A stretch of DNA of 64,000 nt from Stegostoma tigrinum (GCF_030684315.1 NC_081355.1:5880761-5944760); one strand, 5' to 3'; shown: positions 11,685-63,260, counted from the first letter of the stretch. Program-made: numbers and translations. The notes: a model not told the origin generated them from the sequence alone.

Positions 11685-12060
11685 CTGTACACCTTTTGTC
11701 AGTGCCCAGTGCTGGCAGTGTGTGTCATCTACAAGATGCACTGAGCAATTCATCAAGATTTCTTCGACAGCACTTTACAAACCTTTGGCCTCTATCAAAT
11801 AGCCGGACAACGGCAGCAGATGGATGGGAACACCACCACCTGCGAGTTCTACAACTATATTAGTGCTTAACTGTTGCATCAGAAGGCTGGAACTCTCTCC
11901 TTGGTGTAGCGCCACCAAAAGGATAGCAGCTGTATTGGGCCAACATCCTGAGTTTTTTGTATCAGAGATAATGGGAACTGCAGATCCTGGAGAATCCAAG
12001 ATAATAAAATGTGAGGCTGGATGAACACAGCAGGCCAAGCAGCATCTCAGGAGCACAAAA

Positions 12061-12091
12061 GCTGACGTTTCGGGCCTAGACCCTTCATCAG
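12061..12091 (-). ncRNA. Minimal type I hammerhead ribozyme motif
   Basis: CTGATGA-AGGGTCTAGGCCC-GAAAC-GTC; catalytic boxes, stem II GGG/CCC and GUC triplet intact. Confidence 0.75.
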
Positions 12092-12935
12092 AGAGGGGAA
12101 TGGGGAGAAGGAACTGGAATAAATAGGGAGAGAGGGGGAGGCAGACCGAAGATGGAGAGAAAAGAAGATAGGTGGAGAGAGTGTAGGTGGGGAGGTAGGG
12201 AGGGGATAGGTCAGTCCAGGGAAGACGGACAGGTCAAGGAGGTAGGATGAGGTTAGTAGGTAGGAGATGGAGGTGTGGCTTGAGATGGGAGGAAGGGATC
12301 AATGAGAGGAAGAACAGGTTAGGGAGGCAGAGACAGGTTGGACTGGTTTTGGGATGCAGCGGGAGGCTTGGGGACCGCTTTGCAGAACACCTCCGCTCGG
12401 TTCACAATAAACGACTGCACCTCCCAGTCGCAAACCATTTCCACTCCCCCTCCCATTCTTTAGATGACATGTCCATCATGGGCATCCTGCAGTGCCACAA
12501 TGATGCCACCCGAACGTTGCAGGAACAGCAACTCATATTCCGTTTGGGAACCCTGCAGCCCAATGGTATCAATGTGGACTTCACCAGCTTCAAAATCTCC
12601 CCTTCCCCCACCGCATCCCAAAACCAGCCCAGTTCGTCCCCTCCCCCCACTGCACCACACAACCAGCCCAGCTCTTCCCCCCAACCCACTGCATCCCAAA
12701 ACCAGTCCAACCTGTCTCTGCCTCCCTAACCTGTTCTTCTTCTCACCCATCCCTTCCTCCCACCTCAAGCCGCACCTCCATCTCCTACCTACTAACCTCA
12801 TCCCACCTCCTTGACCTGTCTGTCTTCCCTGGACTGACCTATCCCCTACCTCCCCACCTATACTCTCCTCTCCATCTTCGGTCCGCCTCCCCCTCTCTCC
12901 CTATTTATTCCAGTTCCCTCTCCCCATCCCCCTCT

Positions 12936-12966
12936 CTGATGAAGCGTCTAGGCCCGAAACGTCAGC
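12936..12966 (+). ncRNA. Minimal type I hammerhead ribozyme motif (stem II mismatch)
   Basis: CTGATGAAGCGTCTAGGCCCGAAACGTCAGC. Confidence 0.65.
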
Positions 12967-13488
12967 TTTTGTGCTCCTGAGATGCTGCTGGGCCTGCTGT
13001 GTTCATCCAGCTTCACATTTCGTTATCCTGAGTTTTTTGTTTCCTTAGTTACAAGGATAGTTTCTGCGTCCATATCACTAACAGGGACCCTCATTCACTG
13101 ACAGTGCACACAGGAATTCAGGCTCAATCTACTCATGATTTTTTAAACTGGTATTGGTCAAAACATTGAGACTTGTGCATTGCTGTGTTACTGATGTCTC
13201 CCTCTACTGAGTGAGATTCCCTGCTCATAGCATTATTGAGCTTGGCCAACTATTCCCTACAGTGCAAGCATAAACTGGACTGTAGTGGATTTAAACATGC
13301 AATTCTAGTGTATGGTACAGAACTTGCAAATTTAAGGATACTGACCAGCATTTAGAATTATTGTAGTGAATGTGATTAAAGGTTGTTAGCCTTGCTAAAG
13401 GTGAAGTAATGTAGATTGCAGACTTGAGATAAACTGCTGGGAGCGTTTGCAACAATATGCAATCTGCAAGGCTAACTTTTTTTTCCAC

Positions 13489-14010
13489 TCACGGGACCTC
13501 TAATTGCCCTTGAGAACATGGTGATGAGCTGTCTTCTTGAACACTACAGTCCTTGTGCTGAAGGTTGACCCACAATGCCCTTAGGGAGGGAATTCCAGGA
13601 TTTTGACCCAGCAGCAGCGCAGGAATGGCGATATATTTCCAAGTCAGGGTGGAGAGTGTCTTGGAGGGGAGCCTGTAGGTGATGGTGTTCCCATGTATCA
13701 ACTGACCTTGCCCTTCTAGACAGAAGTGACTATGGTTTTGGAAGATGCTGTCTAAGAATCTTTGGTGAATTTCTGCAGTGCATCATGTAGCTGGTACACA
13801 CTTCTGCTGAATGTGTGCAGTGGAAGGAGTGGATTTTGTGGATGCGGTGCCAACCAAGCCACCTGATTTGTCCTTGATGCTGGTGGCTGTTGTTGGAGCT
13901 GCACCCACCCAAGCAATTGGGGAGTATTCCATCACAATCCTGATTTTTACCTTGTAGATCGTGGACAGGCTTTGAGGAGTCAGGTGGTGAGTTACTAGCC
14001 ACTGTTTCCA
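13489..14010 (-). mobile_element. CR1/L2-type LINE 3' fragment
   Basis: Related to 11692-11850 and to the 3' end at 55480-55645. Confidence 0.65.
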
Positions 14011-15508: not shown

Positions 15509-15681
15509 ACTCAGCTGAATTAACAAGGTGTAGAGCTGGATGGACACAGCAGGCCCTGCAGCATCAGAGGAGCAGGAAAGCTGACGTTTCGGGCCTAGAC
15601 CCTTCATCAGAAAGGGTCTCCTGTGATGCTACTTGGCCTGTTGTGTCCATCGAGCTCTACACCTTGTTAACTCAGCTGAGT
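15509..15681. mobile_element. Short fold-back Penelope-like family-A element; intact hammerhead core at 15580-15610 (-)
   Basis: Inverted arms aacaaggtgtagagct.../...agctctacaccttgtt; reverse strand CTGATGAAGGGTCTAGGCCCGAAACGTCAGC. Confidence 0.8.
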
Positions 15682-16364
15682 TGATGTTTTTTCTCCTTAA
15701 AAAAGGAGATGAGAACTTGATTGGGTAAATATTATAAAAATTGGAGAAAGTAATCAGTGGTCTAAGCCATTGGTGTGAGAAGTGGGACACTTAGGTCACA
15801 GTGAAGAATCAAAGGTCAGGGCAGAAGAGGGTCAATATGAGCTTAAAAGCACATATTCATTTTCCTAATAGCCACAGCGATCAGAGATAAAGACACGTAC
15901 ACACATTCTGAGCAAGAGTCACTGGATTTGAAACATTAACTCTGATTTTCTCTTCACAGATACTGCCAGACCTGCTGAGCTTTTCCAGCAACTTCGGTCT
16001 TTGCTCCTGACTGGAAGCTCGACTGATCCAGGTCGGTCTTTTCTCCATACAAGTGTTTTCTCACCTCTCTTCAGCTCAGGGTATCAGTATACCTGCTGTT
16101 CCCCTCAGCAACATGCTCTTAACGAGCTTCCACTTAAATGAATTGTTACTATTGAGCTCAACCACTCCTTTTGATGGTGAGTTCCACTTTCATAAGTCTC
16201 TCTTGGATACAAAGTTTCTCTTGAATATGCTATTCGACTTAGTAGTGCCTATACTTTCTTAATTTTCTCTCATAAAAGGAAACATCATCTTGATTTCTAC
16301 CCCATCAAATACTTTGATAATCTTAAATAGTTTTCTTTGAAATGCTTTATATGACCAGTCATAC

Positions 16365-16585
16365 CGAAGGAATGGTGAACGTGTTTGTCCATCCTGATCC
16401 AGCTCAAAAAATGTGTCTGCACGCAATCCATCAGCAACAAAAAGAACAAGACGTTTAGCTGGTGGCGGTAGTGATGTTCGATGAGGAGTCATTCCATGCA
16501 CAAGGGGAGAAGTGAAATAAATGTCAAAAATGGAGGCAAAGAAGATGAGATGCACAAGCAAGCCAATCAGGAAAAATGCCAGCAT
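16365..16585 (-). CDS. PIGN: PIGN first coding exon (exon 16365-16623 incl. 5'UTR)
   Basis: [32 protein letters not shown]...[17 protein letters not shown] is the PIGN/Mcd4 N-terminus; acceptor ttttcag before 16623, donor CG|GTATG after 16365; 221 coding nt. Confidence 0.97.
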
Positions 16586-17619
16586 GTTTAGACATAAATC
16601 TGATCACTTCATTCCAGGAGGAACTGAAAATCAAACAGAAACATGGAATTATTTTTAGCAATTTACACAGTGGGTGCATTTTTAACTGAGCTGAATCCTT
16701 CCCCTAGCAACACCGTATCAGCATGGTTTTATAATAGTTACATATTAAATTGTCCACTTTAATTTGTACTGATATTCAGAAACCTCAATTCTTGTAAACC
16801 TTTATGACATTACAGGCTTTTACAGCTAAACAACTTGAAAAATAATTTATATTATAATTGATTGGAAATGCATTTTAAAATGTTTTTAGCTTTCTTCGTG
16901 TGTTTGACCCAAGGGTCACCATGACTTCAAGCTTGTGAAGGCAGGATCTTCATGATCATCTCAGATAGCACAGAAATTGAACCAGGGCTGTTGGTATCAC
17001 ACTGCAATACAAACCAGCCATCAAGCCAACTAGGCTAACCAATCCCCAGTAGTTGGGAAAAGCATCATACTGGACTCAAAATATTTACTTGGTTTTTCTT
17101 GTCACAGATGCTGTCAGATCTGCAACGTTTCTCCTGCCCTCCTGTCTTACTGCATCCATAGTAAATCACTTACCCCTCTATATGCGGCAGCAAATTTCAC
17201 ATTCTTATCAGTTTATTGTAGAGTTTTCTCCTGAATCCCCCTGCAGCATAGGAACAGGAGTAACCCATTTATCCCTTGAATCTGTTCTGCTATTCAATAC
17301 GATCAAGGCGGATCTGTCATCTGTTGCCATATACCCGCTTTTGTCATCTTAATAAATATTCTTGCATAGCCATAATAACTTCCATTAATAACAATGTATC
17401 AGTCACAGATTTAAAATTAACAACTGATATGCTATCAGTTGCTATTTGCAGAAGAGAATTCCAATCTTTTATAATCCTTGAATGAAAAAGCATTTTTGAA
17501 AGATCTGCTTCTAATTTTTTTTACTACTGCCCTTTCGTACTAGATTCCTCAAATCCGCAGACAGAAAAGTTTCACTTCATCTGACCCAGATGTTTACCCT
17601 AATATCTTGCACTAAATTA

Positions 17620-17890
17620 GCTCTGAACTTTTACAGCCCATCAAGTCCACACCAGACTTCCAAAGAGCATCACACTCAGACCCACCCCCACCCCTCTCCC
17701 TGCATTTCCCCATGGCTAATCCACCTAACCTGCACATTTTTGGACTATGGGAGGAAATCAGAGCACCCAGCGGAAGCCCACAGAGGCACAGGGAGAATGC
17801 GCAAATTCCACACAGTCAGCTGAGGGTGGAATAGAAGCTGGGTCCCTGTCACTGTGCGGCAGCAGTGTTAACCACTGAGCCTACCGTTCA
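17620..17890 (-). mobile_element. V-SINE (HE1-like) copy
   Basis: V-domain-like sequence (gtggaatttgcgcattctccc; gttaggtggattagccatg on the reverse strand) with tRNA-like head; related to 56310-56635. Confidence 0.75.
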
Positions 17891-18354: not shown

Positions 18355-18520
18355 CTGCCCGATTGAGCGTGTCAATACCTGGGAATAGGCCCATTGGACA
18401 CAGGGAAGCTGCCGACATTGATTCAATCGACACAGTGTACTGCGCTTGCGTGGTTGCTTACCGTTGCGACTTTTGACCTTCGGCATCGAATGTCAAGTTT
18501 GTCTCCTTCGACAGCGGCAA
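18355..18520 (-). other. PIGN: Putative non-coding first exon of PIGN (5' end unknown)
   Basis: Consensus donor CAG|GTAAGT at 18355/18354 within the CpG-rich region; second donor ACG|GTAAGC at 18462/18461; the first coding exon has an acceptor, so an upstream exon is needed. Confidence 0.55.
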
Positions 18521-18829: not shown

Positions 18830-19244
18830 ATGGCGGCGTCTAGTGTCAATCCTTTCCTTAGCGACTCGGACGAGGAGTCCGAGAGAAAATCGCGGAGAGG
18901 CAAAGACGTCGGCGCGCCGGGTCTACCGCTCTCCACCGCACACATCCCCACGCTGCCCCTGTCACCTCAGCAGGAAGCGGGTTTCGGTTACAGCGGTGGC
19001 GGGATCAGGGAGGCGGCGGTCGGACTGCCGCTGGGGGCAGAGCCGCCTCGCGTTCCCCTGGATACCATCGCGGCCCAGCTGTTGCGAGACCAGTACATCC
19101 TTACCGCCTTGGAGTTTCACACCGAGCTGCAGGAGGCAGGCAGGGAGCTGCCCCGGCTCCGCGATTACTTCTCCAATCCCGGCAATTTCGAGAGGCACAC
19201 GTCCACTCCCCCCAAGGACCTGGCTCCTGCGCCCGGGCAACTCA
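18830..19244 (+). CDS. RELCH: RELCH (KIAA1468) exon 1
   Basis: MAASSVNPFLSDSDEE...IAAQLLRDQYILTALEFHTELQEAGRELPRLRDYFSNPGNFER; donor A|GTGAGT. Confidence 0.95.
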
Positions 19245-19413
19245 GTGAGTGGTAGAGGCAGCACCTGCAAGGATTGGGAACACAAGGGTGGGGATCGGGG
19301 TGCTGAGCAGGGAATTGAAAGTACTGTCTGAAGTGAAAACGGAATGTCATTGAAACCTGAGGCTTTAATGAGACTAGGGGAGCGGGACTGGTGGGAGAGG
19401 TAGAATGACAAGT

Positions 19414-19577
19414 GTCAGGTGAAAGCAGAATTAATGTTTCGGGTCCGGTGACCGTTCTTCAGCACTTTTGCTCTTAAAGAAGCATCACCGATGCCGAAAT
19501 ATTAATTCTGCTTTGACTCTCTCAGATTCTACTAGACCTGCTAATTCGAGTTTTTCCGCAATTTCTGTTTTTGTTTT
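19414..19577. mobile_element. Fold-back Penelope-like family-B element; hammerhead core at 19431-19462 (-)
   Basis: Reverse strand CTGAAGAACGGTCACCGGACCCGAAACATTAA; TGACAAGT duplicated at 19406-19413 and 19578-19585. Confidence 0.7.
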
Positions 19578-21804
19578 TGACAAGTACGGGATTACAATGT
19601 AAATGGCCAGATCTGAGTTTGAGGACGATATGCGCTTGAAGGAACGGGACGTATAAAACTTAAAACTCATTAAAATGACTTTGGGCATAACAGCGAAGTA
19701 CGGACGGATAGAACTGAAGGGAAATTCTATACGAGCGTAGTTGTGCTGCTTGTCGGTAACCTAAAATAGTTAGAAATCTTATAAGGATCACTTATGGTAT
19801 CAATTTTTGTTTTCGTCTTGGCCTCACAAGAATAATATTGAATGTTCGTAGGAGCAGGTATACTGTGAGCTATAATTCACTGGGGGTTTGTATGATATGT
19901 GGTTCATAACTGATACTAATGCTCGCTGGACGCAACATTAAAATTTTGTTTTGGTTTGTAATAATTTCCTGTTTGCGAACTGCGTCTGTGAATGCCACCC
20001 GGTGTGATCACAAGTCAAATTAGGGGAAAGACCGTTTGGGCTATTCGATTTCATTCTTCCGGACCTGCTGTTTTGCATTGCAGCATCTAATTCTAACTTC
20101 AGCCACTTGATTGCTTTAGCTTTAGTTATTGTTTTTTAACAGATTGTTTAAAGAAGTCGTTGACTATAGGGTATATCTATTTTATAATCCTATTATTTCT
20201 CTTAAAAAGAAAGCTATTTCTTCGGTTTCTTTTATTTCTCATCTACATGCTGTCTGTCTGTACATCATCAGAAATCTGTTTCCTCAGGGATATTGCTGTC
20301 ACCAGCTGTACTACTTAAATTTCTTCACTCTCTAAATGATCAGACTACTTGTCTGGCATACAGAACTGGACAAACAGAGAATTCCTTCGGTTAAATATTA
20401 AGTGTGCTGCTATCATTAGTCTCGGTCCCACCTCCAATCTCCATTTCTTTGCTCTGAATTTTCCCCCCTCATGGCAACTGTCTGAGACATGATGAGACTA
20501 ACGTTTTACCCTGCTGTGACTTCCAACTGCACGTTCATGTCGTCACTAAGACCATCTGTTTCCACCCTGCTGACAATCCTCAACCCAGTCCCATCCTTGT
20601 CTTATTCACTATTGAAATTTTAATCTAGATCTAGACTTGACCCTTAATATTTGCCCCAAGCAAGTCTCAATTCTAGTGTCTATAAACTGTTGGCTCAATT
20701 GAAGTCCCATTGACATGGTACTGTGTTCACTGACCTACACTGACTCCAAATAAAGAGAGCCCGTCTTTTACAATTATCATCTTTATTTTCAAATTCCTCT
20801 ATGCTTCAACTTTCCTCATCTGTAATCTCCAATCACAGAATTTGTGAATCATTGTTTTGGATTCAGCTGGCTGGGCCCTGTGTTTCAGAACTCTGCACAA
20901 GCATCTTCTTTTTGGCATCTTGAAACTTAATTTTTTTGTGTAATAACTTTGATCAACTGCCTTAATATCTTTTTGGTTTAGTTTATAATCATGTAAAGAG
21001 AATTCTAATATAAGTGCTGTAAGATGGTGTTGCATGAGCTACACCTGGCCCACTTTAAATTTCTTCCCTCACCATTTGTATCAGCAATCTGTCGTCAGCG
21101 TTGATGGTACATATCTTGCATGTTAGATGAAACAAGGGCTGTGTGAAAAATTCCATCTGCCAAGTTGATTTTGAAGAGTGCTTATTTCTTCATGATTGTG
21201 AAAGCCTTTGTTTTGGACTTAAATGGAGAGAATAGAATAGACTGTTTCTGCATGTTTGCTTGAAAATTTGTACTCCATTGAATATCAGATCAGCTTCACT
21301 TTTTATCTGAATATAAGGTGGTCTGACGTTGGTTGTTGTTTTAGCATCGGGTGATACGATAGGATGTTTTTGAAGATCTTTTCTTAAGTACAGTTATAAA
21401 GTGTCCTTCGCAGAACCAGGATGTGTCCATGGCTCATTGGTGGTGATAGCACGGGAGCTTGACCGAAAATTGGCAAGATGATCTTTAATGACTCCTTCTT
21501 CATTTTTCCATTTTACGTATCTTGAAAGATTTTTCAAAAAGCTTGGTTTAATTTCACAGCTTCAATACTCAGTTGTAAAAAATAATTATCCAACCGGATA
21601 AGCCCTTGACTGAAAAGTTCCTAAATCTCATTATAAGCTAATTTAAAAAAAATCTGTCTACTATTTTGAAGACATATTTAAGCATGGATGATGCCTCCTA
21701 TTCTGCTTAGAGATGTAACTGCAGCTGAGAGCTGCTAATAATATACTCTTAACACATAGGTTTGCAAGAAATAGCTTTTGTTCTTTGCAGTGAGTTTAAG
21801 GTTT

Positions 21805-22205: not shown

Positions 22206-22603
22206 GTCTCTCTCGCAAACAGACAAGGTTAGTGTGACATTGCTCAGGGCGATGAATGAGAACCATTCAGGTAATTTCCCTGGATTCCAACTTCAAACAA
22301 TTTTAAGCACATGCTTTTAAAAAAAGCAGAATGAAGACTGCATTTTTGTGCAGTGATACCATTTTCCAAGCACTTTTTTTGCTTCACACTCCAGCTGTCA
22401 TGCAAATGCTGAACCTCAACTGATTCTGGAATGAAGTAGACGAGAGTGTTCAAGCCTTCACACTTTATGCTCTGTGTTTAGCATACAAGCTAGATAGTCA
22501 TGCTTCATGCTGAATCTCTGGGTTGTGAATGCATTATAATGCCTATGCAATAAAAACATGGTTTAAATTGGGGGCAGTTTGCAGCAAGTATTGACTTCTG
22601 TGG

Positions 22604-22779
22604 CAAAGCCAAAAAGTGGAGAAACTCAACAGGTGAGGAGAAAGAGAGTTAACATTCCTTTGTCATTGGGCCTCAAAAGTTAACTGTGTCCACAGATGCT
22701 GGCAGACCTGCTGAGTTTCTCCAGCAATTTCTGATTTTGATTCTGACCTCCAGCATCTGTAATGCACTGTTTTATGTTG
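22604..22779. mobile_element. Degenerate fold-back family-B element
   Basis: ccacagatgctggcagacctgctgagtttctccagca arm; TTGACTTCTG at 22591-22600 and 22780-22789. Confidence 0.6.
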
Positions 22780-25705: not shown

Positions 25706-28076
25706 AGATCTGAACCTGAATTGTTCAATTTATTAGTTTCACTTATTAGTTCGGAGTCACATGTAGGCTGAACTGGATAAAGTTAGTACACTTAGTTTCC
25801 TAAGGAGCAGTAGTAAACCCGATGGCTTTTTACAACAATGTTACTAATCCTGACTTTATATTCCAGGTTTATTAATTGATTATACGTTCCAAGAGTTGCC
25901 GTAGTGGGAATTGAACCTCTGTCCCATGAGCATTAATGTACCTCTGGATCTGTAATACATTGGCATTACCATAATGTCAGCATCTTTCCATGCTGCTCAA
26001 ATTTCTGTTAGTTTGATCTTTGATCATGCTAACATTTTCCATCAATTTATTTGCTGCAAAAGTCGTCATAATGATTCTCTCCTTCCAGGTGTATGGTACC
26101 AAACTGGCACTTATTGACTTGAATCACATTTCAGCTTCTGAAGTATGTTATATAGATTCAAAATCGTGCCACTTTCATGGTTTCTCAAATGTGAAACTGC
26201 AACAAGTCTGATAGTGGAGTGTTCAATTTATTTAGGTAGTATATGGAAATTCAAATGATTTTTGCCCTTTTGAGAAAAGGCTGTATTTCTCAAATGATCT
26301 CATTGCAGAGCTTTCATATTTCATATTTCAGCAATAACCAACTCTGATTTAAACAAAACACAGTAAGCCTTTTGTAATATCAAAGCATTTCAGTCACTCT
26401 AAGACATGAAGAGTTCTCATCTTTTTGATTAGCTTTCTTTGGCAAATCTGGTCTTCACCTTGGGAGGTGTGGTGTCAGTGGGACCTGTATTCGTTGCATG
26501 TTCCATTTGTAGTGTTGTTGTACCTATTTCACTTGCGTAGCCAGACATTGTTGCTTTGGCAACATGAACGTTGCTGGGAAACTGATGGAAGGTAGTCCGC
26601 AATCGCTTCCAACTGTGGTGCCTCAGAATTTGACTGATTCCATACTTGACCCTTGAATTATTATCCTTGTATAATAACATTTAAATGTCATTGAGTGATG
26701 AAGCAATAGTTTACTTCAACTATCCTCCGCGCTCTGCATCTGTTCCTCCATTGGAATAGCATTACAGAGGCTGGATACTTTTTTGTGCATGGAATCAAAA
26801 ATTGTGGAAGTAGTCACCTTGGGCGAATCCTGTGCACCTTCTTGAGGTGAGCTAACAAGGGCATTGGTAGAAGTTGGAAAGTTGATATCTGTCATGCTAC
26901 TTTAGCCAGAATTGGAGAGTATAGACTTGAGAAAAGGAAATGTAGAGAAACATGAGAGAAGTATAAAAGATGACTCATGAAGTGAAGAACAAACTTCTTC
27001 AGTTCTTTTGCTTTGGATAGTTTTTACACCATTTTGTTGTTTAGCCATAACAGTAATGCTACATGAGAAGTAGTATTAAATGCAAATAAAACAACTGATA
27101 ACTGTCAGTTCGTTCAAGTCTCACTCGCAATGCTGCATCACTAGACACTCTTGATGAGAATGAGCAAATTGTTTTTAGGATCAATAATAGTTAACACTAT
27201 TTCTTCTCCTTCATTCATCAGCTAAGAGCATGTTGATCCTAGGGAATGGAATGCAAGTTTGGGTTCAATGTGATGCTGCTTTTTCTCCATAAAGCCATGT
27301 GCTTCAGTCCCAGTCTCCAAAAACCACTGTTTCCTTTTACCTTGATGGTGTTTATTCACTTCCCACACAAGCATCTACAAGCTGATCTGATTACCAATGA
27401 ATGCAAATTTGAGGATAATGCTGTGCTGTCGACCTTTTGGATTGGATTCAAGTTTCTTTAACAAAAGACGCTTGGAGCCTTTCACTCCCTCTGACTGCTT
27501 AGATTTAAGCATGGGCCTGCAAGTATTCAATACAATGCGCTACCAAGTTCTACTCAACTCCCCCCACCTTCTGAAGGGCAATAAATGCTCACCAGCTAGT
27601 GGCAACCAAATCCATGAATGGACTTTTATGAAAAATCAATTTTTTTTAAAAAAAAGCTATCCCTTCTTTTGCTGCAATTGAACATTTACCAATGTTGAAA
27701 TCAGCCATCAGTTTTCGACCATTTTAGATTTTACTCCCTGAAAGGAGTCTCATGGGAAATTGACTAATATTTTACAAATTAGACCCATGTGTGTGGAATT
27801 CTGCAAATAATACTTGGCTGTTCATTTCCTCCTTGGAATAATATTTATTAGTGTAGTTAAGAAATTCAAAGGTTCTGCATTCTTACTAATTACAGTTCCT
27901 AGTTTTGTGCAAAAATGGAATCAAGTCCTCACTTCCTGAAGCTGATAACCATTTTTTTGCTGTACATGTAAAGTGTTTAGACAATTAAAGCCTGCAAGTA
28001 GTTGCCAAGTGAATGGAGATTTGCTCACACTCTAGTGTATTGTTGCAGCCTGGAGTATAATGTGTTGCTTCTGCTT

Positions 28077-28291
28077 AAATAAAACCAAAAGAACTGCGGA
28101 TGCTGTAAATCAGGAACAAAAACAAAGTTGTTGGAGTAGCTCAGCAGGTCTGGCAGCATTTGTGGAGGAGAAAATAGAATTAACGTTCGAGTCCAGTTCT
28201 GAGAAAGGGTCACCGGACCCGAAACATTAACTCCGTTTTCTCCTCCACAGATGCTGCCAGACCTGTTGAGCTTTTCCAACAACTCTGTTTT
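28077..28291. mobile_element. Fold-back Penelope-like family-B element; hammerhead-like core at 28199-28231 (+)
   Basis: ~75-bp inverted arms (cagcaggtctggcagcatttgtggaggagaaaa / ttttctcctccacagatgctgccagacctgttg); core CTGAGAAAGGGTCACCGGACCCGAAACATTAAC. Confidence 0.8.
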
Positions 28292-28424
28292 TGTTGCTTC
28301 ACCTTCCCGATTACAGACCAGTAATGTTGTACAGCTGCAGTCTTGGTGTAAATCACAGATACGCTTGGAAAATTCAACAAAATATTAAGGTTAAATTTTA
28401 ACACCCATCCCTTTTTCTTGATAG

Positions 28425-29480: not shown

Positions 29481-32400
29481 ACATTTTGAGTAAAGGTGTA
29501 GTCTAAATATAATTTTAAATTTTGGAGATATGGTGCTGTCGAGTAATAAGAACATGGCCTGGAAAATAAACCGTGACAATTGTAACACCCATAGGAAGGA
29601 ATACTTGGGGAAAAGTTGAACACCAGAATTGTATTCTGCGCTGAAAAGATGAAGCACATTTGCATGTTCTAGAATATAGTGCATTGAACTAATATATTGG
29701 ACTTTAGCATTCAGTGTTCAAGTGAATCTCATGTCCAATTTTAGTTGTGTGAATATAAAAGGGGAAAAAATGGGACACTATGCCACAAGAGCTTCTGGGG
29801 AGATGACAAGATTGTCTACTAGTTAATCACTTATGACTAATTATACCTCCGGACTGCGCACAGTGCTTAGGATTTAATGAATATCCCAATGATCATATTG
29901 CATGGTAGAGCAGCCAAAAAGACTGAATGGCCTATATGTATTCTTATTTTCTATGCTTCTATAAGCTGTCTAGTTTTTTGATTTGGCAAGATTGCTGAAC
30001 TGTGCAATTTGTAAATTGTTAACTGTAACCAATTCTTTCTAGTCCTTTGAGATATCAAGTGTTATAACATTTAATGACAGTGCAGCTGGGGTTCAACTTG
30101 TGTGACATTAGTTTCTGACAACAGCATGACGAATTTGATGTTTTTATTTCCAGGATAGCTGAAATAAGGATTTGTCCAGCCAAGTATTGTGTATTTTGTT
30201 TCCAAACAAGGTAGCAGTCGCTTGGTTTGAAACTTAAGGCAAACTTCGTTTTGGGGCATAAAACATTTCATTTCTGTCCTTAACCCTTAGCAGAAATTTA
30301 TTCTTGTTGTTCAAGAAATCAAATTTAACCTTGCAAACACAGAATATTTAAAGAGACGCTACATTTACTTTGAAGTGTTGCACTCTGAAACAAGTGTGGA
30401 ATTGAATTGCCAGCTGACAGGGCACGCTCACTGACTTCTGTGGCTCAAGGCCTTCTTGATAAGTTGTGGGCAAAGTGTGTCATTGCTGAATCTGAACAGC
30501 TGACAGCTGCTCTGCTCCACTTCATTTGTTTCTTTGCACCAAAGTTAAAGCCATTACTTTGCATCAAGTTACAGAAATTTCAATAATCTTTGTCACATAA
30601 ATATTAGGCAAAAGGGTGCAATGGTTCTGAAGAGGAATTTCAATCTATTATTTGATTTCATTATTTAAGTTAGGACTCTAAGCTCATGCAAGTTCTGTCA
30701 GTAAATCTAACTGAAGACATTTTCAAAGCTCCAAATATGTCCTGCAACATCACTGCAAATGGGCTGCAACTGCAGAGAAAGTTCACATTTTTAGTTGGAA
30801 GTGTTACTTCCCCAAGTTGAAATGAGGGGTGTTAGATTGAGAGAACAAAATGTAGAGCTGGATGAACACAGCAGGCCGAGCAGGAAGGCTGACGTTGATC
30901 TTACTCTCCAGTGTAGATTTGTAGTCAGCATAGTTTACCTAATTATACCATGTGCCACCTACAGTAGCATTCTGAGTTCCTGATGGGCAGGTCTTGCACA
31001 GCTGGCTGCAGCTGTGAGTTTGAACTGCAAAGATTCCCCAAACCCAACAATCAAAGGACTTGACTTTCATCCAGTTTTGGGACTGCATTTAGTGGATCAA
31101 GACACTTTTACTTTGGACCGCCAAAACCTGAGATCCAGAGCCTCAAGCTGGTAGGGTTTGTGAGAGTTGGATGTAGTGTGAAGTCCAGTCAGATTGCTTA
31201 TAGCAGTTTCTAGCAGCACCTCAGTGCTGGGATGGTGACAGATAAACAGTTCAATAGCTGGAGGCTTTGGAATCTAAATGAGGTAAACCGTAATCAAGAG
31301 CAAGTAGGAATTGGCACTGGAACAACCTTGCTGGCTGGACTGTTCCATTTGTCTGCTGAGAACAGCAGGGGAGAGATGGTGCCAGGAATTTGGAATTTGA
31401 CGTAGACTTTCACCAAACAGGGGCACGCATTCTAATAATTTTGGTGATAACATACGTTCTGTAAAGTGTCTTCTGCTTTAACCTTGTTTATTGCCCATAG
31501 ACAATTATGGTGCGGGTGGGCAAGGGAGGGCCGAAAGCTGTTAACTTTAAACGATCTATAATGCAAGATAAGTATCTTGGGATCACAAGTGTACCAGAAC
31601 TGAGCTCAAAAAGCCTTTGCAATTAAAGCTTTGTTTATGTTGATATTTGGCTGTTGGCTTGAATGAGAGCAGGTCTGTGGGAAAGCTTTCTTTATCCAAA
31701 CATTTTTGTTACAGGTAGGAGCTACTTTTTTTAAGCACATCTCTCTCAACTTCAGTTCTTTTGAGCATTGAACAGCCCTGGTTCCTGTTCCAAATGGAAA
31801 CATTTGCAAGTGTGACATTCTTTAAACCCTTGTGTAGAGCAATTGTAGACAAATTGGAAGACTGCGTAAATTATGCTACAGGCCTGACATTTCTAGCAGG
31901 TTTATTTCTCAATGATTAGAATTCATTTGGGGCATGTTATGTGTAAGCCTAATCTAGTCATTGCAAAAATATACGCATATATAGCACAGAAATCATGATC
32001 ATGGAGGTGCAATTTGTATTTCTCTACAGGCCGAAATTAAAAATCAATCTAATGCTGTGTGATATAAATGTCTGATACTTCACTTTTCCTGAGGTTGCTT
32101 TAAACTGTTTATATTTACTATTAGTGTAGTAAAATGAACAAGAGAGCGAGCTATATTTCACAGGGCACATATGAAAAGAAGCTGGTGGTTCCATGTTTAA
32201 ACTAGCAACATGTGCAAAGGTGCCTCAGTACATATCAGTTGTTGCTGTAACCTGATCTCATGATCCCTTTTCTGTTTCACAAGTATTATGTTTCTTATGT
32301 GCCTATAGTTCATTGATGCTAAACCTTGTTGTTTACATTCTCCTCCATTTGTGGAATTCAGTAGTTTCTTTCCTTTTCCATTCATTTGAATTAGATGTTC

Positions 32401-35754: not shown

Positions 35755-36145
35755 AGATAACAAGGTGTAAGGCTGGATGATCACAGTAGGCCAAGCAGCA
35801 TCAGAAGAGCAGGAAAGCTGATGTTTTGGGCCTCGACCCTCCTCCGGAAGGGGGGATTCTGAAATAAATAGGGGAGAGGGGGAGGCAGATGGAAGATGGA
35901 TAGAGGAGAAGATAGACAGGCCAAAGGCAGGATTTGTCTGTCTCCTCTCCACCTATCTTCTCCTCTATCCGCCTCCCCCCTCCCTGTTTCTTTGAGAACC
36001 CCCCCCCTTCCCCTTGCCCATTTCTGAAGAAGGGCGTAGGCCTGAAACGTCAGCTTTCCTGCTCCTGTGATGCTGCTTGGCCTGCTGTGTTCATCCAGCT
36101 ATACGCTGTGTTATCTCAGATTCTCCATCATCTGCAGTCCCTACT
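35755..36145. mobile_element. Fold-back Penelope-like family-A element; hammerhead core at 36024-36054 (+)
   Basis: Inverted arms; ATCTTGGTA(G/A)CCTTTCAG duplicated at 35737-35754 and 36146-36163. Confidence 0.82.
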
Positions 36146-43589: not shown

Positions 43590-44745
43590 AATTAACAATG
43601 GGAAGTTCAAAATGGTAAAAGCATTCAGATGTTTTGCCTGCTTTCACTCTTGAGGACATAAATGATATCACAGAAATCCTTGTAACTCGAAAGGCAAAAT
43701 GAAGGGAAGGACTTAAAACAATTACAACCACCAATGAAATGGAAAACTATTAGAACTGAAGGCTGTAAAGTCACTAGGACCTGATGGCCTGCATCTTAAG
43801 ATCTTAAAAGAAGTTGCTACTGAGATAGTAGGTGCATGGTTTTTAATCTTCCAAATACTAAAAACAACAAGTTAATGTTCTGAGTCCAGGCACCCTTCAT
43901 CTGAACCGATAAATGGTAATTGGAGTTGAAGCATTAACTCTATTGTACTTTTTTGCAGATTCTGACAGACCTGTCTAGTTCCTCCAACACTTGTTTTTTT
44001 CAGTTTTTGTTTGAGTTCCAGCATTCACAGTTCTTTGTTTTATTTAAGCTACAGATCAGTTCGCTGAACATCAGCCATTAGAGAAAATGTTAGAATCTTT
44101 AGGTGGTTGTAGCCAACACTTTAATCTCAAAATAATCAGGCAGAGTCAACATGGTTTTGTGAAAAGGAAATCACAATTGACCAATTTATTGGTGTTCTTT
44201 TGAGGAGTGTAACAAACAGTATGGACAAAAGGGAACCTATGGATGTCGTATGCATGGATTTCCAGAAGGCATTTTCAAAGATTACTGCACAAAATAAGAG
44301 GTCCTGGTGGAAGGTCTATAGGGTCAACATTTTAGCGTAGTTAGATTAATTAGCTGCCAGTAGGTAGAGAATAAAGATGGTTGGCTCTTTTCAGGTTGGC
44401 AAGCTGTATCTAATAGAATATCACAGGACTGGGCCCTCAACTATTTGCAATCTATGTTAATGACATGGATGAAGTTACTGAATTTTAGGCTGCTATGTTT
44501 ATTGATGGCCCAAATGTAGGTGGGAAAATAAGAAGAAATGAGACTACAATTTCATTATAAATAGGTTGTGTGAGTGGGCAAAAATTTAACAGAAGGAGTA
44601 CAACATGGAAAAAATGTGAACATGTCTACTTTATCGGAAAGAACAGAGCAGCAGGTTCTATTTAAAGGGAGAGAGTTTGCCGAACCCTACGATCTGGAGG
44701 AATTTCGATGAATCACAAAAAATTGTATGCGGTACATCATGTGAC
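43590..44745 (+). mobile_element. Old CR1 fragment with nested family-B fold-back (~43860-44045)
   Basis: GPDGLH, SQHGF and MDFQKAF-like remnants; insert gttaatgttctgagtccaggcacccttcatc. Confidence 0.65.
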
Positions 44746-44749
44746 TAGG

Positions 44750-49540: not shown

Positions 49541-49544
49541 TTGG

Positions 49545-50639: not shown

Positions 50640-51412
50640 AGTAAGGAGCTGGAGAAGCACAGGAGGCCAGGCAGCATCAGGGGAGCAGGAAAGTTGATGT
50701 TTCGAGACAAGACCGTTCTTTGGAAATGGGGGAAGGGAGCTCTGAAATATAGAGAGAAGGGATGGGGCTGGGTTAGGTAGGGGGATCGTGACAGGTGAAT
50801 GTAGGTAGTGAGTGGTGTGGATTGGTCGGTGAGGTGGGAGAGAACATAGAACAATACAGTGCAGAACCGACCCTTTGGCCCTCGATGTTGCGCTGACCTG
50901 TGAATTAATCTAAGCCCATCCCCCTACACTCCCATCATTATCCATATGCTTGTCCCAGGACTGTTTAAATGCCCCTAACGTGGCTGAGTTAACTACATTG
51001 GCAGGCAGGGCATTCCACGGCCTTACCACTCTGAGTAAAGAACCTGCCTCTGACATCTGTCTTAAATCTATCTCCCCTCAATTTGCAGCTATGCCCCCTC
51101 AAGATGGACAAGTTGTGTCAGATCAAGGAGGCAGGGATGAGACAGAGAGTGAGTCGTGGGATGAGATTTTAAAACTGGTGAATTCCGTGTTTAGCCCATC
51201 GGACTGTATGCTCCCGAGGTGGAATATGAGGTGCTGCTCCTCCAGTTTGCAGGTAGTGTAATTGTGACACTGGAGGAGGTGCAGGATGGTCATGTCACTC
51301 GGGGAGTAGGTGGTGGGGGTAGGGGGGGTTACAAAATGGGTGGCAACCAGAAGGTGGTGTTTGTTGTGTATGTGTTATTTCTGACTCTGGCATCTGCAGT
51401 TCTTGCTATCTT
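50640..51412 (-). mobile_element. Old Penelope-like family-A element interrupted by a CR1 3' end (50842-51100)
   Basis: Reverse-strand GIY-YIG remnant; element sequence resumes after the CR1 insert; inverted tail at ~51373-51412. Confidence 0.72.
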
Positions 51413-51962
51413 CTAACAACTTATCATTTGTTTTGTCGATCATTCTTTTCACTGTCTGCAGGTCTATAAATTATCGTTGAGGGCACTTAATCCTTTGTGT
51501 TTCCTTCAACTTTAATTTAGAAACAATTCTGACTTTGTTCCACAGTATTCATTCTAAACTGCTGCAGTACGAGTTGAAGTTCCCCTCTACAGTTGGTGTC
51601 TAACTTCCTCTCCAAGCTCAATTTTTCTTAAGGCCTTGCTTCTCCACCTGACTGAGTTGTCAAATTCAATCTCCCTGTTCAGCTCCAATCCATTTGTTTT
51701 CCTGTGTTAAAGTTATCTGAACTCAAATGCCTGTTTGTGCTAAAGTTGAAGCTTATGCTTTTGTACAGAGTACCGCATAATTGTCCCTAATGACATTGCA
51801 TTGTGGCAGTTTTCATGAAAAATTTATTGGGCATGCCAATATTTGTAAATTGCACATGTGTTTGCAGTTTTACAACACAGCCAAAGTTTTTAAAACCTTC
51901 TTAACAAAATGTCAAAAAATGTTGTATTATGCACATAATTGATTTTGTTTCAATTCTAACAG

Positions 51963-53179: not shown

Positions 53180-54260
53180 ATCACTGGTCACATGCTTACT
53201 GCTGAGTCAAAAATCAAGGAGTCAAATCCCAGTCCAGTGACTTGAGGACATAATCTATGTTGAAATTTCCAGTGCAATACTGAAGGAATACTACACAGTT
53301 AGAGGTGTTGGTTTAAAAAAAATTTTGGTCCCTCAAGTCCAATGTAAGAGATTAGATGGCACCAATCAAAGAAGGACAGTGAGCATCTCCTGGTCAAGAT
53401 TCATCCATCAAACAATGCCCAAATTGACTTCAGAATTGTTATGGTGCAGAAGATTGTAAGGCTCATCACCCTTCAACCAAGCGTCATTACCTAGTGCCAA
53501 TCTCCTGCTTTCTCCCCCATATCCCTGTACACTATTTCTATCCAAATAATCATCCAATGCCCTCTTGAATGTCTCAATTGAACCACCTACACGCCCTAAC
53601 TATTCTGTGTGAAAAAGATTTTTCTCTCATCACCTTTACTTCTTTTGCATATCACTTCCAATTTTGTCCTATTATTCCAGTTCCTTTTTATGAGCAGGAA
53701 CAGCTTCTCCTTTTTTGTTCACTCCAGCTCGCTCATGACTTTGAAAACCTCAATGAGATGTCCTCTTGGCCACGTTTTCTTCAAGGAGAGCAGTCTCAAC
53801 TTCTTCAATCTATCCTCAAAACTAAAGTTTTTCATTCTTGTAAATCACTTCTTCACTCTCTCCAATGACTTTCCTATGATGTGCCCACAACTGTACATTA
53901 CTCCAACTGAGGTTTAACAAGTGTCCTATGATCTTATTATTGATTTCACTGCTGGTAAGCTTGCTGTGCACCAGTTGGCTGCTACATTGCTGGCATTGCA
54001 ATAGTAATGACACTCCAAAAATACTTAGATAATAAAATGTGAGGCTGGATGAACACGGCAGGCCAAGCAGCATCTCAGGAGCAGCTTTTGTGCTCCTGAG
54101 ATGCTGCTGGGCCTGCTGTGTTCATCCAGCCTCACATTTTATTATCTTGGAATCTCCAGCATCTGCAGTTCCCATCATCTCCAAAAATACTTAATTGGCT
54201 TAAAGAGCTTCAGGGCATTCCAAGTTTGTGAAAGACCATATAAACAAAGTCCTTTTCCAT
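53180..54260 (+). mobile_element. DeuSINE split by a CR1 fragment (~53430-53930, -) and a family-A hairpin (54028-54178)
   Basis: 5' and 3' DeuSINE halves are collinear with 33005-33365. Confidence 0.65.
54028..54178. mobile_element. 151-bp fold-back family-A mini-element without hammerhead core
   Basis: ~57-bp stem (54027-54083 / 54091-54147), 7-nt loop; CTCCAAAAATACTTA duplicated at 54013-54027 and 54179-54193. Confidence 0.85.
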
Positions 54261-59393: not shown

Positions 59394-59789
59394 GCTTTGT
59401 TTATTTTCTAATCAACTCATTCAGATTTTATTTTACACCTCTGGAGCAGATGGGATTTGACCCAAGGCCTCTTGGCTCAGAGGCAGGGACAATACCACTG
59501 CAGCAGAAGACCCTTACCATCATGGTAGTGGTAAAGTGAAAAGGGCATTGGACTTGGGTGATGTGCCTTATAGCTTGCTGAGGATTGAGTAAGAAATTGG
59601 AGAGGATATTAACCGCAATGTGTTCAGATATGGAAGTTGCACCACATGACAGGATGGTAACATGTACAGTATAAAGCGATAAAACAAGTAATAATAGGCT
59701 TACTAGCCTGACACCAGTAGTGTCAAATCTTTGAAACTAATCTGTATGGTTAAAAAATAATTTTTGTATAGAAAGAACTAAATGAATTA

Positions 59790-60150
59790 TGATCTGATAC
59801 TACAAGGGTATCAGGGAGGGTGTTCCTGATGCTGGGCGTGTCCAAAACCAGAGATCATTGTATGACAATTAGGGGTAGACGATTTAGGACAGAGATGAGG
59901 AGACATTTCTTCATCCAAAGGGTGGTGAGCCTATGGAATTCATGACCACAGGAAGTAATTGATGCCAAGACATTTAATGTATTCAAGAGGTGACTAGATA
60001 TAGTACTTGGGGTGAATGGGATCAAAGGTTATGGGGAGAAAGCAGGATTAGGCTATTGAGTTGGACAATCAGCTGTGATTGTAAAGAATGGCAGCACAGG
60101 CACAAAGGGCCAAATGGCCTCCTCCTGCTTCTACCGTCAATGTTTTCTAT
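59790..60150 (+). mobile_element. CR1 3' fragment nested in an older CR1 remnant (~59690-60500)
   Basis: gatgaggagacatttcttcatccaaagggtggtg; gggccaaatggcctcctcctgc 3' end. Confidence 0.65.
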
Positions 60151-61313
60151 TTGTTAAACACTAAGCTGAGCCTGGCAATCTGTTTAGTGTACTTTGAGAA
60201 AATAATGCATTGGATTGTTAAATGGTAAGCAATAGGCATCTATCCACAAAGGCATTTTCAAAAGGCATTTGATATTTTGCCAGATGAGAGCTTTGTTAAT
60301 GAAATTCAAGTATTTGATTTAAAAGGAAATGTTGCAGCCTGGAAAGGAAGTTGAAAAAGGAAACATATTGTTGGTTAATAGATTTTATTTTTGAACAGAA
60401 GAATTGTGGCAATGAAGTCCAGCAGCAGCCCATTGCTTTTATTAATTATGTAAATGATCTGTGATTACAAGGTTGCATTGGAAATTGTAGACGACATAAA
60501 AGGAGCATTGGGATTAACAGAAGTGGACAGTAAAGTGTTTGTAGACTAGACCAGATAGGGTCAGGTTTAATGTGGGAAATTGAGAGCTGATTTGCTTTTG
60601 GTTGAGTGGGTGGTGACAAATGCATAAGTGAATTATGTGCCAAATTGTAAACCCTTGAGCAGAGAAATTTTGCAACAAACTGAATAATGCTCAAATTGGA
60701 ATTATTACAGTGTGCACAATTGGCCTTGACTGTGCTGTGGTCACGTAGGTTTGTTGGCAGGAGCTCGTACCATAAATTGCTTGTATCAAACAAGCTGAGT
60801 TCCACCATAGTTAAGTCAGCACTCTGCTCCTGCCAATGGTTTTAAGTACTTTGCAAATGCAGCAGTTTAGTCAGTTCCTGATGTTTGTGTTAATTACCTG
60901 AAAGACTTGTGTGATATCATGAATTCACAAAAAGAATGACTGCATCTCATCAACCCCACCATGAGCACAATAAATACCAGAAATTCACGTGACTAAGTGT
61001 CAGTATGGATTGCTGAGCAAAGCTGGCATTGCCTGGTTGACAGACCCAATAGGTTTTGGCCACACTCTGTAGTAAATGCCTTGATTTAATTTCTACAGCA
61101 AGTCTGCCAAAGGTGTTGTTTTATAAGGCACAAGTGCTTTGATCTGCACTTTGTGTAATATATTTCTTCTTCTGGAATATCTTGTTCTATTTGAACTCAT
61201 TTTCAAGCCTAATTCTATTAGAATTCTTGTGGGTGTTTCAGTCTTTTGCAATCCCTCTTTGAGGTTTGAGGTGCATGGTGACACATTAGATACTATTTCA
61301 AAATAACCTATGT

Positions 61314-62440
61314 ACAAAGTGTGAAGCTGGATGAACACAGCAGGCCAAGCAACATCTCAGAAGCACAAAAGCTGACGTTTCAGGCCTGGACCCTCCTTCA
61401 GAGAGGGGGATGGGGAGAAGAAACTGGAATAAATACAGAGAGAGGGGGAGGTGGACCGAAGATGGAGAGAAAAGAAGATAGGAGGAGAGGAGAGTATAGG
61501 TGGGGAGGGAATAGGTCAGTCCAAGGAAGACGGACAGGTCAAGGAGGCGGGATGAGGTGGTAGGTAGGAAATGGAGGTGCGGCTTGAGCTGGGAGGAAGG
61601 GATGGGTGAGAGGAAGAACAGGTTAGGGAAGCAGAGACAGGCTGGGCAGGTTTTGGGATGTAGTGGGTGAGGGAGGGGACGAGCTGGGCTGGTTTTGGGA
61701 TGCAGTAGGGGGAGGGGAGATTTTGAAGCTTGTGAAGTCCGCGTTGATACCATTGGGCTGCAGGGTTCCCAAGCGGTTCCTGCACCCATCGGATGGCATC
61801 ATTGCAGGGCACCTCCCAATTGCGAACCATTTCAACTCCCCCCTCCCATTCCTCAGACGACATGTCCATCATGGGCCTCCTGCAGTGCCACAATGATGCC
61901 ACCCGAAGGTTGCAGGAACCGCTTGGGAACCCTGCAGCCCAATGGTATCAATGTGGACTTCACAAGCTTCAAAATCTGCTCCCCCCCGCCGCGTCACAAA
62001 ACCAGCCCAGCTCGTCCCCTCCCCCCAACTACATCCCAAAACCAGTCCAGCCTGTCTCTGCTTCCCTAACCTGTTCTTCCTCTCACCCATCCCTTCCTCC
62101 CACCTCAAGCTGCACCTCCATTTCCTACCTACCACCTCATCCTGCCTCCTTGACCTGTCCGTCTTCCCTGGACTGACCTATCCCCTCCCTACCTCCCCAC
62201 CTATACTCTCCTCTCTACCTATCTTCTTTTCTCTCCATCTTCGGTCCGCCTCCCCCCCCCCCCCCCCCCGTCCCTCCCTATTTATTCCAGTTCCCTCTCC
62301 CCATCCCCCTCTCTGATGAAGGGTCCAGGCCCGAAATGTCAGCTTTTGTGCTCCTGAGATGCTGCTTGGCCTGCTGTGTTCATCCAGCTCCACACTTTGT
62401 TATCTTGGATTCTCCAGCATCTGCAGTCCCCATTATCACT
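61314..62440. mobile_element. Large fold-back Penelope-like family-A element; hammerhead cores at 61371-61401 (-) and 62313-62343 (+)
   Basis: ~490-bp inverted arms, both encoding RLGTLQPNGIN(A/V)DFTSFK; 3' tail only on the right arm. Confidence 0.88.
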
Positions 62441-63260
62441 AAGGCAGTCCTCCAAATGGGAGAATGTTGAGATGGGTGAAGGAAGTGAGATCTTCAAGTG
62501 CATGTCCACAGGTCCCTGAAGGTGGCAGGATACAGTGATGAAGACGGTCTGTGGGATGCTTTCCTTCATTAGGCAAGTTATTGAATACAAGAGCAGGGAT
62601 GTAATTCTGAAACCATACGAGGCACTGGTTAGGCCACTGTTGACATTTTGTGTACAGTTCTACTTATGACAATACAGGAAGGGTGTAAGTGTTGCGGAGA
62701 GTATACTGAGGAAATTTACAGCAATATTGCTGGAGCTTAAAAAATTAGGAAAGATTAGCTGATGACGGGCCAAGGCCCAAAACGTCAGCTTTTGTGCTCC
62801 TAAGATGCTGCTTGACCTGCTGTGTTCATCCAGCTCCACACTTTGTTATCTAAGATTAGGCTGGGGTTGTTTCCTGAGAACAGTGGAGGCTGAAGCATAC
62901 TTAATTGAGGTGTAGAAAACCATGAAGGGCTTGAATAGAGTGGACTGGGAGACCAGTTGCCTCTAGCAAAGTGATAAATTACCTGGGGGCACCGATTTTA
63001 AGATTACGGTTGAAGGATTAGAGAGACTGTGAGAAAAACCTTGTTGACCAAGAGTGTAACCTAGAATTCACTGCCAGTTCAGTGGCTGAGGTGGAAACCC
63101 TCAACCCATTTAAAGGAGCCTGGATCTGCACCTGAAATGGTGCAGCCTGCTACAGGCGTACTGGAAGGTAGGGTTAGAAAGGATGGCTATTTTATTCAGC
63201 CAGCACAGGCATGATGGGATGAGTGGCCTGTTTCTGTACTGTAACCTTTCAGTGGTCCTA
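62441..63260 (+). mobile_element. Old CR1 3' fragment with nested family-A mini-element (62759-62851)
   Basis: Degenerate CR1 ORF2 C-terminus; insert flanked by AAGATTAG (62751-62758, 62852-62859). Confidence 0.7.

Follow-up and report, generated by a model that had tools for sequence, protein, structure and literature searches.

Do short inverted repeats that carry hammerhead ribozymes, densely scattered through the introns of two shark genes, move as ready-made hairpins, or is each hairpin made anew when a longer element inserts? The question is raised by a stretch of 64,000 nucleotides from Stegostoma tigrinum (GCF_030684315.1 NC_081355.1:5880761-5944760; hereafter the window, with positions counted from its first letter), which holds exons of PIGN and RELCH. 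An earlier annotation made without database searches (the sequence-only reading) saw here a population of Penelope-derived copies, and suggested that the very short hairpins may form a non-autonomous system, mobilised as units in the manner of retrozymes or of miniature inverted-repeat transposable elements (MITEs). Our analysis points the other way. The copies are very likely truncation products of Penelope-like elements (PLEs), each arising with its own insertion, and we consider it probable that they are dead-on-arrival, 5'-truncated insertions that decayed neutrally in shark introns, the hairpin being formed afresh every time. Published sources are cited by identifier, for those portions of each that were accessible.

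Two related families of Penelope-like 3' ends

Self-comparison, an inverted-repeat search, profile searches (nhmmer) of families A and B and local alignment, applied to the whole window, identified 16 insertions comprising 26 arms (Table 1), which occupy ~5.1 kb, or ~8% of the bases, at a density of about one copy per 4 kb. A reversed-sequence control for the profile search gave no matches. The insertions are PLE 3' ends of two families, A (9 insertions, 15 arms) and B (7 insertions, 11 arms), and since the two profiles cross-match, down to E 1e-10, the families are related. Ten of the 16 are fold-backs, i.e. two arms joined head-to-head, with 3' ends outward in 10/10 cases and insertion sizes of 150-1130 bp; six of the nine family A insertions take this form, five of these six with a tail on one side only. 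The range delimited by the sequence-only reading (11961..62851) contains 14 of the 16. Its nine fold-backs were all recovered with ends that agree to ~10 nt, its call at 15509-15681 including the copy's own 10-bp target site duplication (TSD), and a tenth that it had missed lies at 50641-51415, where a CR1-like piece interrupts the copy.

The Penelope origin that had been proposed is borne out by coding sequence. A reading frame for the C-terminus of a GIY-YIG endonuclease is found by tblastn in four family A insertions, and a 77-aa piece at 12370-12600 has 91% identity to two uncharacterised shark proteins, P0001 (Rhincodon), at its C-terminus, and P0002 (Stegostoma). In P0001 a reverse transcriptase (RT) match (RVT_1, E 9e-5, below the curated cut-off) is followed by a GIY-YIG match above the cut-off, and thus proteins such as the autonomous partner that the sequence-only reading advised looking for do exist in related sharks; among the matches listed, full-length relatives have 750-950 residues at 45-53% identity. 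The window itself carries only the endonuclease end of the family A open reading frame, the longest arm measuring ~670 nt at most. As family A extends by varied lengths into this frame and has an RT plus GIY-YIG relative, it represents an autonomous-type element by its 3' end, with many different points of truncation. Where the endonuclease frame ends, a 39-nt repeat (12598-12709) has three units in the right arm of the insertion labelled 12k in Table 1 (12R; L and R denote left and right arms) and two in each 61k arm, and its unit number is a subfamily marker.

The linker between RT and endonuclease in P0001, from whale shark, contains CX4CxxC (residues 318-326), and two cysteines occur within its GIY-YIG domain (region 354-370). 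A CX2-5CxxC linker marks the Neptune or Nematis clades and, in the accessible text of PMC8557442, is absent from Penelope/Poseidon; family A is accordingly a putative Neptune-type family. Neptune-clade endonuclease-containing (EN+) elements (PMC8557442) share with it the C-terminal GIY-YIG domain after the RT, and with the copies described here 5' truncation, an inverted truncated copy at the head, a one-sided tail of 30-40 nt and a hammerhead in the pseudo-long terminal repeat (pLTR). They differ in that only 3' ends are present here, with no partial tandem or direct pLTR pair in the window.

Every hairpin has its own junction

A common internal junction among the short forms was the test that the sequence-only reading set for its own proposal. 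The inversion junctions differ in 10/10 fold-backs, the outcome that this reading had named, as far as junctions go, as counting against it, and those that are readable share from 0 to ~5 bases (54k, 2; 28k, 2-3; 61k, 4; 50k, ~4; 15k, 0). The claim that the hairpins have TSDs of their own is upheld: duplications occur at 8 of 16 loci, around seven of ten fold-backs (8, 9, 10, 10, 15, 16 and 18 bp) and one solo copy (8 bp). In the null for this comparison a score of 8 was reached by 4/300 random boundary pairs and exceeded by none, the real boundaries having been set by eye from alignments, partly with the duplication in view.

The 3' ends of the arms occupy two distinct positions: the shorter arms end at the first, and those with a tail 35-45 nt beyond it. 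A tail is present on one end in eight of the ten fold-backs, on neither in two and on both in none. An inverted truncated copy with a one-sided tail is typical of PLEs (PMC8557442, PMC3846280, PMC8969392), and of the traits of EN+ PLEs, 5' truncation, an inverted copy at the head and a tail at one end are seen in family A, while the variable-length TSD is seen in both A and B (8-18 bp, 8/16 loci). As a separate observation, ~15 nt are missing from the same region of the arm body in the tailless left arms of two family B copies (19414-19430; 22630-22645).

The mobilisation of pre-formed hairpins as units can be weighed against these data. Short hairpins of 150-220 bp do carry their own TSDs and family B junctions do cluster at the hammerhead, both as such a model would have it. 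Against it stand the unique junctions, the size range of 150-1130 bp, which grades into coding sequence, the variable TSD length, the asymmetric ends and the lack of any hammerhead tandem array, and we regard the model as very improbable. MITEs have a TSD of fixed length, symmetric terminal inverted repeats, homogeneous size and a common interior. The copies resemble them in being short, palindromic, dense and intronic, but are of retroelement origin; with TSDs of 8-18 bp, a tail that lengthens one end in 8/10 and no common size or junction, they are not MITEs. Non-LTR retrozymes (bioRxiv 10.64898/2026.07.22.740005; LTR, long terminal repeat) are likewise derived from a PLE pLTR, with a type I hammerhead, and occur in a chondrichthyan genome, but they form head-to-tail arrays with a hammerhead in each unit, whereas the present copies are dispersed and either head-to-head or solo. 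No head-to-tail hammerhead units were found in the window (0/6 rows of Tandem Repeats Finder; self-BLAST returned dispersed and inverted copies), and the copies are therefore not retrozymes by the published definition.

How the hairpins may form

Both arms of an insertion appear to come from one source. Of 347 columns in an alignment of 12L, 12R, 61L and 61R, 8 group the arms by insertion, with 2 and 1 in favour of the alternatives, and a 14-nt deletion within the endonuclease frame occurs in 61L and 61R but not in 12k; the grouping and the common deletion together indicate a single source for each insertion. The deletion also suggests that a defective template was moved in trans. Differences between the arms of one insertion range from 3/58 to 14/38, a spread which implies that the insertions cover a long time. 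In a comparison of private substitutions (11997-12363 vs 12685-13027; 61314-61667 vs 62029-62405), left (minus-strand) arms have 23 and right arms 10 after removal of alignment edges, with no clear mutational spectrum; the raw counts were 33 vs 10, with 10 of the 33 being alignment-edge artefacts, and this comparison was not used further.

The extent of the arms is informative about their synthesis. In three fold-backs (12k, 28k and 50k) the arms are non-nested, the tail-bearing arm being the shorter at the head side. In 12k the tailed arm starts ~270 nt upstream of the hammerhead core and the tailless arm ~570 nt upstream; in 28k, with positions numbered from C3 of the core, the left arm, with tail, starts at +16 and the right arm, without tail, at -4. 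The two 50k arms are contiguous and non-overlapping in element coordinates, i.e. a clean inversion without duplication. In the twin priming of L1 elements a second nick primes internally, and the product is inverted at its 5' end and flanked by TSDs. The 50k copy shares the non-overlapping layout, but most copies here differ from twin-primed L1 in that the same 3' segment is duplicated in both arms.

A precedent for priming on both strands is the Poseidon element PAc of the anole Anolis carolinensis, whose protein, a predicted dimer, nicks and extends both strands and has two internal RT start sites that bound the tail (PMC11167929). Like PAc, the present copies have a tail delimited by two discrete 3' ends a short way downstream of a hammerhead, and two-strand nicking and extension fits them. 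PAc belongs to another clade, and in the accessible part of PMC11167929 a head-to-head product is not modelled for it. For the same comparison, the N-terminal 150 residues of 50 relatives of at least 700 aa (of 150 listed) were searched against the window; two matches at E 0.03-0.05 were obtained, neither in an arm, and the arm 3' ends thus have no match to the first 150 residues of these long relatives and give no indication of an open reading frame that begins at the hammerhead.

On this basis we give some preference to a mechanism with two primers over one in which an intermediate folds back upon itself. The RT/GIY-YIG protein of the element would bind its own RNA just downstream of the hammerhead, as extrapolated from the anole element (PMC11167929), and both target strands would be nicked 8-18 bp apart, in keeping with the TSDs seen here and with two-strand nicking by the anole element in vitro. 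Each nick would then prime reverse transcription on RNA of the same source locus, at either of two internal start sites 35-45 nt apart, leaving a tail at one end; the end positions and the common source are observed, and the priming is what the model supplies. Both complementary DNAs would end prematurely, frequently close to the hammerhead and at points unrelated to each other, and would be joined head-to-head over 0 to ~5 bases, as the observed junctions suggest, by a presumed repair pathway. The hammerhead would be a passenger of the pLTR.

The origin of the inverted repeats and one-sided tails of PLEs is described as unresolved in PMC8557442. The alternative is a snap-back, in which a (possibly antisense) intermediate folds and self-primes the second arm and the endonuclease then trims one end; it draws on a self-priming model (PMC3846280) and on an idea for its resolution (PMC8557442). 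We hold it possible, though less probable. It would explain the common source of both arms in every insertion examined and the short shared bases at most junctions. However, a self-primed copy must lie inside its template, and the arms of 12k, 28k and 50k do not nest; in addition, sense RNA is the template on which the anole enzyme extends the two target strands (PMC11167929). Self-priming with one-sided trimming may account for 12k and 28k. In 50k the arms do not overlap, which means that neither can have been copied from the other. In a literature search that mostly lacked subscription papers, neither Penelope hairpins of sharks nor a two-primer origin for them came up.

Several points weigh against the view that these are truncated insertions whose hairpins form anew from two primers. 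Four of the eight tail-bearing fold-backs (22k, 36k, 54k and 61k) are nested and fit a snap-back equally well, with 44k marginal, and the non-nested arms could be those of a longer hairpin intermediate trimmed on one side. As 50k is without a detectable TSD, that it is a single event follows from its abutting junction alone. The absence of two-tailed copies is weak on its own (p 0.09). At a few sites 12L and 12R each match the 54k arms rather than one another, which may reflect recurrent mutation or more than one template. As to the source, the Neptune-type placement of family A is by one motif, which Nematis also has, a full-length PLE is absent from the 64-kb window, and family B shows no coding sequence in 11/11 arms by tblastn.

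The feature is real and dense, yet ordinary for PLEs, each of its traits having been published already; a PLE expansion in whale-shark introns has been reported (bioRxiv 10.1101/443036). Its remaining value is mechanistic, in that short, complete insertions with TSDs permit a test of nested versus non-nested arms, and three copies are non-nested. Copies of this kind bear on the choice between the proposed self-priming (PMC3846280) and the two-strand priming seen in vitro (PMC11167929). Fold-backs at the density of this window may in addition yield much intronic double-stranded RNA, and may often be miscalled as microRNAs (miRNAs) or MITEs.

The hammerheads are minimal, decayed and, as predicted, mostly buried

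The minimal type I hammerheads previously noticed are confirmed. Pattern searches allowing up to 3 mismatches give seven matches in family A and three in family B, with 0.00 expected (100 shuffles). Of the 18 arms in which the hammerhead was scored, six have a perfect core, and three of these six also have an intact stem II and the palindrome 15.1-16.1. Searches of Rfam gave no hammerhead match up to E 10, either for the whole window or for the best copy alone; the 34 matches for the whole window are all below the gathering score and are mostly miRNA-precursor hairpins. Compared with the hammerheads of metazoan PLEs (PMC4209133), the motifs have the same core, an extra base after A9, the pair G10.1-C11.1 and the palindromic 15.1-16.1, and they likewise occur mostly as single motifs on truncated copies, with opposite-strand pairs 100-700 bp apart. 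In the metazoan motifs stem I is 4-5 bp, whereas it is 2 bp in family A here; family B, with 4 bp (28R), has U at position 17. One two-sided change in stem I separates the families, and is not above shuffles. In the accessible text of PMC4209133, where sharks are not named, low activity is reported for minimal PLE hammerheads, and the hammerhead of PAc is not needed in vitro and requires protein for cleavage (PMC11167929).

The core has decayed at the rate of its surroundings, with 11/110 changes vs 114/968 outside it in family A (p 0.75) and 16/95 vs 169/852 in family B (p 0.59), where the core was counted against the ideal and the rest against the family majority. Between arms of one insertion the figures are 12/59 and 61/405 (p 0.34). 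Within the limited power of these tests, the ribozyme thus shows no trace of selection following insertion. Predicted folds of fold-back transcripts pair the hammerhead with the opposite arm at >0.6 in 10 of 12 strand cases, a core position off by 1-3 nt having been used in five of the 12; for 5/6 perfect cores the pairing would be 0.80-0.96, with a probability of 0.0 for the closing pair of stem II, a value given only for perfect cores, in which the register was right. With the hammerhead buried by the opposite arm, the fold-back layout would work against ribozyme activity, not for it. The exception is the perfect hammerhead at 15583-15610, which lies in the loop of 15k, where the left arm (-) begins 6 nt before it and the right arm begins downstream of it, and is on the PIGN sense strand. 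The family A motif also favours a competing 6-bp helix, with a dimer hammerhead computed at -1.9 to -5.5 kcal/mol vs -22.8 kcal/mol for two misfolded monomers (nearest-neighbour energies, with tertiary contacts omitted), and self-cleavage of a dimer by naked RNA is disfavoured in this model.

It follows how the idea that intronic hammerheads have been retained to act on PIGN or RELCH pre-mRNA should be judged. One perfect hammerhead, that of 15k, is indeed unburied and on the sense strand; the core, however, decays as its neighbours do, five of the six perfect cores are paired with the opposite arm, and in family A a stem I of 2 bp stands against the favoured competing helix. We consider such a role extremely unlikely.

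Downstream of the hammerhead, RNAalifold finds one conserved 4-bp hairpin. An 18-pair structure with a helix between body and tail is 88% paired, and as its covariation score is reached by 44/500 shuffles it is a lead only. In families A and B alike, the tail can pair with 8 nt of the arm body (62355-62362 with 62417-62424, and equivalents in other copies), and a 4-bp hairpin between the two segments has a two-sided change. The body-tail pairing is a possible protein-binding or RT-start structure, its covariation being not above shuffles.

Family B arms begin at the hammerhead

In family B every one of the 11 arms has its start in the interval from -5 to +22 around C3, with 8 no more than ~6 nt away from it, compared with 7 of 15 family A arms that start that late (Fisher p 0.007), start points being read by eye from decayed copies and the arms of one insertion being non-independent. 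Eight of the 15 family A arms reach >50 nt upstream; counted by insertion, none of seven in B and five of nine in A reach beyond -50 (p 0.03). The limit at -4 in family B coincides with the 5' strand of the 4-bp stem I.

Such a limit could mean that family B, with some short A copies, came from a short linear non-coding RNA of ~140 nt running from hammerhead stem I to the tail, with hairpins still formed at each insertion. This RNA would belong to a non-autonomous partner that is SINE-like (short interspersed nuclear element-like), or else be a strong-stop-like run-off product made at the 5' end of the transcript of the element itself. The shared starts of family B speak for it, as do two family A arms that also start there (15L at -6, 62.8k at +1). 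On the other side, the sample is small and from one window, the starts were read by eye from partly dependent arms, the 5' end is not fixed by a TSD in two of the three family B solos, and the same limit is predicted by an RT stall on entering the C-rich pLTR or by splicing to an acceptor at stem I, of which a case is reported in D. virilis (PMC4209133). A short RNA is therefore a tentative explanation, and its narrower form, in which B is a distinct SINE-like Penelope partner whose linear RNA of ~140 nt yields both solos and hairpins when a dimeric enzyme primes both nicks, seems to us rather doubtful. If it were true, shark genomes would hold a very large natural record of Penelope inverted-repeat and tail formation. 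In a weaker form, then, part of the sequence-only reading survives for family B: the sharp 5' limit at the hammerhead stands, and the copying of the hairpin as a unit does not. A search with a read-through translation of the 28k hairpin, which would reveal the same junction at other shark loci, gave 51 candidates, none at E up to 1, and is weak evidence.

Two further observations concern start points. One of the 26 arms, the right arm 54R (54082-54181), begins where the hammerhead is predicted to cleave (+28/29), 1-2 nt being shared with the left arm; this single case would fit reverse transcription of cleaved RNA. Family A also has, 12-23 nt upstream of its hammerhead, a conserved pyrimidine-rich tract with CAG at its end (12903-12914, 62281-62292 and, on the minus strand, 35861-35872), which resembles the splice acceptor of a pLTR intron that is retained, such as has been reported for Penelope in D. 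virilis.

The locus and its other repeats

PIGN (minus strand) and RELCH (plus strand) are arranged head-to-head, with a CpG-rich stretch at 18-20 kb between them (16558-18830), a neighbourhood that we take to be the same in other vertebrates. Nine further exons of RELCH were placed by tblastn, the last at 57414 (residue 518 of 1204), and additional PIGN exons, found with known peptide motifs, lie near 14750, 8650, 6460 and 900. None of the mapped exons, which for PIGN are a subset, overlaps a Penelope-type insertion, in accordance with the intronic placement and the occurrence on both strands noted earlier. The 61k and 62.8k insertions are past the last mapped RELCH exon and the 17.1k insertion is upstream of the first PIGN coding exon, and their intronic location is inferred from these positions.

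Table 1. Penelope-like insertions and gene features located in the window.
Feature	Position	Strand	Remarks
Family B solo arm	2504..2593	+	Starts at hammerhead stem I; tailless; within CR1-like fragment; possible 7-bp TSD (3.7% of null pairs equal)
Old family A solo	5117..5623	+	GIY-YIG C-terminal remnant, C-rich pLTR, decayed hammerhead; tailless
Family A fold-back (12k)	11961..13027	.	16-bp TSD (11945-11960 / 13025-13040); arms non-nested
12k left arm	11964-~12363	-	Tail; perfect hammerhead 12064-12091
12k right arm	~12360-13027	+	~300 nt further upstream than left arm, into GIY-YIG; tailless
GIY-YIG endonuclease frame, C-terminal part	12364..12615	+	Protein match and tblastn
Family A short fold-back (15k)	15519..15672	.	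Tailless; 10-bp TSD
Family B solo arm	15906..16011	+	Begins 2 nt before hammerhead core; TSD looked for, not found
PIGN (GPI ethanolamine phosphate transferase 1), first coding exon	16361..16558	-	High atlas score
Family B solo arm (17.1k)	17056..17162	+	Heavily decayed; nhmmer E 4.6e-10
RELCH/KIAA1468 exon 1	18830..19246	+	92% identity to Chiloscyllium RELCH
Family B fold-back (19k)	19414..19579	.	Both arms begin at hammerhead 5' edge; left arm 3'-shortened; tailless; 8-bp TSD
Family B fold-back (22k)	22601..22779	.	Right-arm tail; 10-bp TSD
Family B fold-back (28k)	28072..28294	.	9-bp TSD; non-nested; ends ~125 nt before RELCH exon 2
Family A short solo	30838..30897	-	Start inside hammerhead; internal deletion
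Family A fold-back, older subfamily (36k)	35755..36149	.	Right-arm tail; perfect core 36024-36051; 18-bp TSD with 1 mismatch
Family B fold-back (44k)	43860..44049	.	Arms join at hammerhead 5' edge; right-arm tail; left arm 3'-shortened; TSD not found
Old family A fold-back (50k)	50641..51415	.	No significant TSD; ~4 nt shared at junction
50k left arm	50641-~51374	-	Split by CR1-like 3' piece 50844-51100
50k right arm	51371-51413	+	Almost only tail
Family A short fold-back (54k)	54027..54181	.	Without hammerhead core; right arm tailed; 15-bp TSD; 2-nt junction microhomology
Family A long fold-back (61k)	61314..62440	.	Both arms into GIY-YIG; right-arm tail; 4-nt junction microhomology; TSD not found
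Family A solo (62.8k)	62759..62851	+	Begins exactly at hammerhead C3; tailless; 8-bp TSD; inside CR1-like fragment

Fragments of a long interspersed nuclear element with RVT_1 matches, which we take to be CR1-like, make up ~8.8 kb of the window (9653-11686, 39216-40707, 47382-49492 and smaller pieces). These and the Penelope-type copies are nested in both directions, a CR1 3' piece splitting the 50k copy and the 2.5k and 62.8k copies lying within CR1-like fragments. Three shark gene predictions (P0002, P0011 and P0021) run through Penelope pLTRs or merge CR1 and Penelope pieces, the C-terminal end of P0002 being a translated hammerhead, and these read-through or fused models are likely annotation artefacts. 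Unrelated to families A and B are two inverted pairs of dispersed repeats (11717-11841 / 13677-13802 and 23616-23954 / 25367-25702) and an AT-rich palindrome at 33872-33930.

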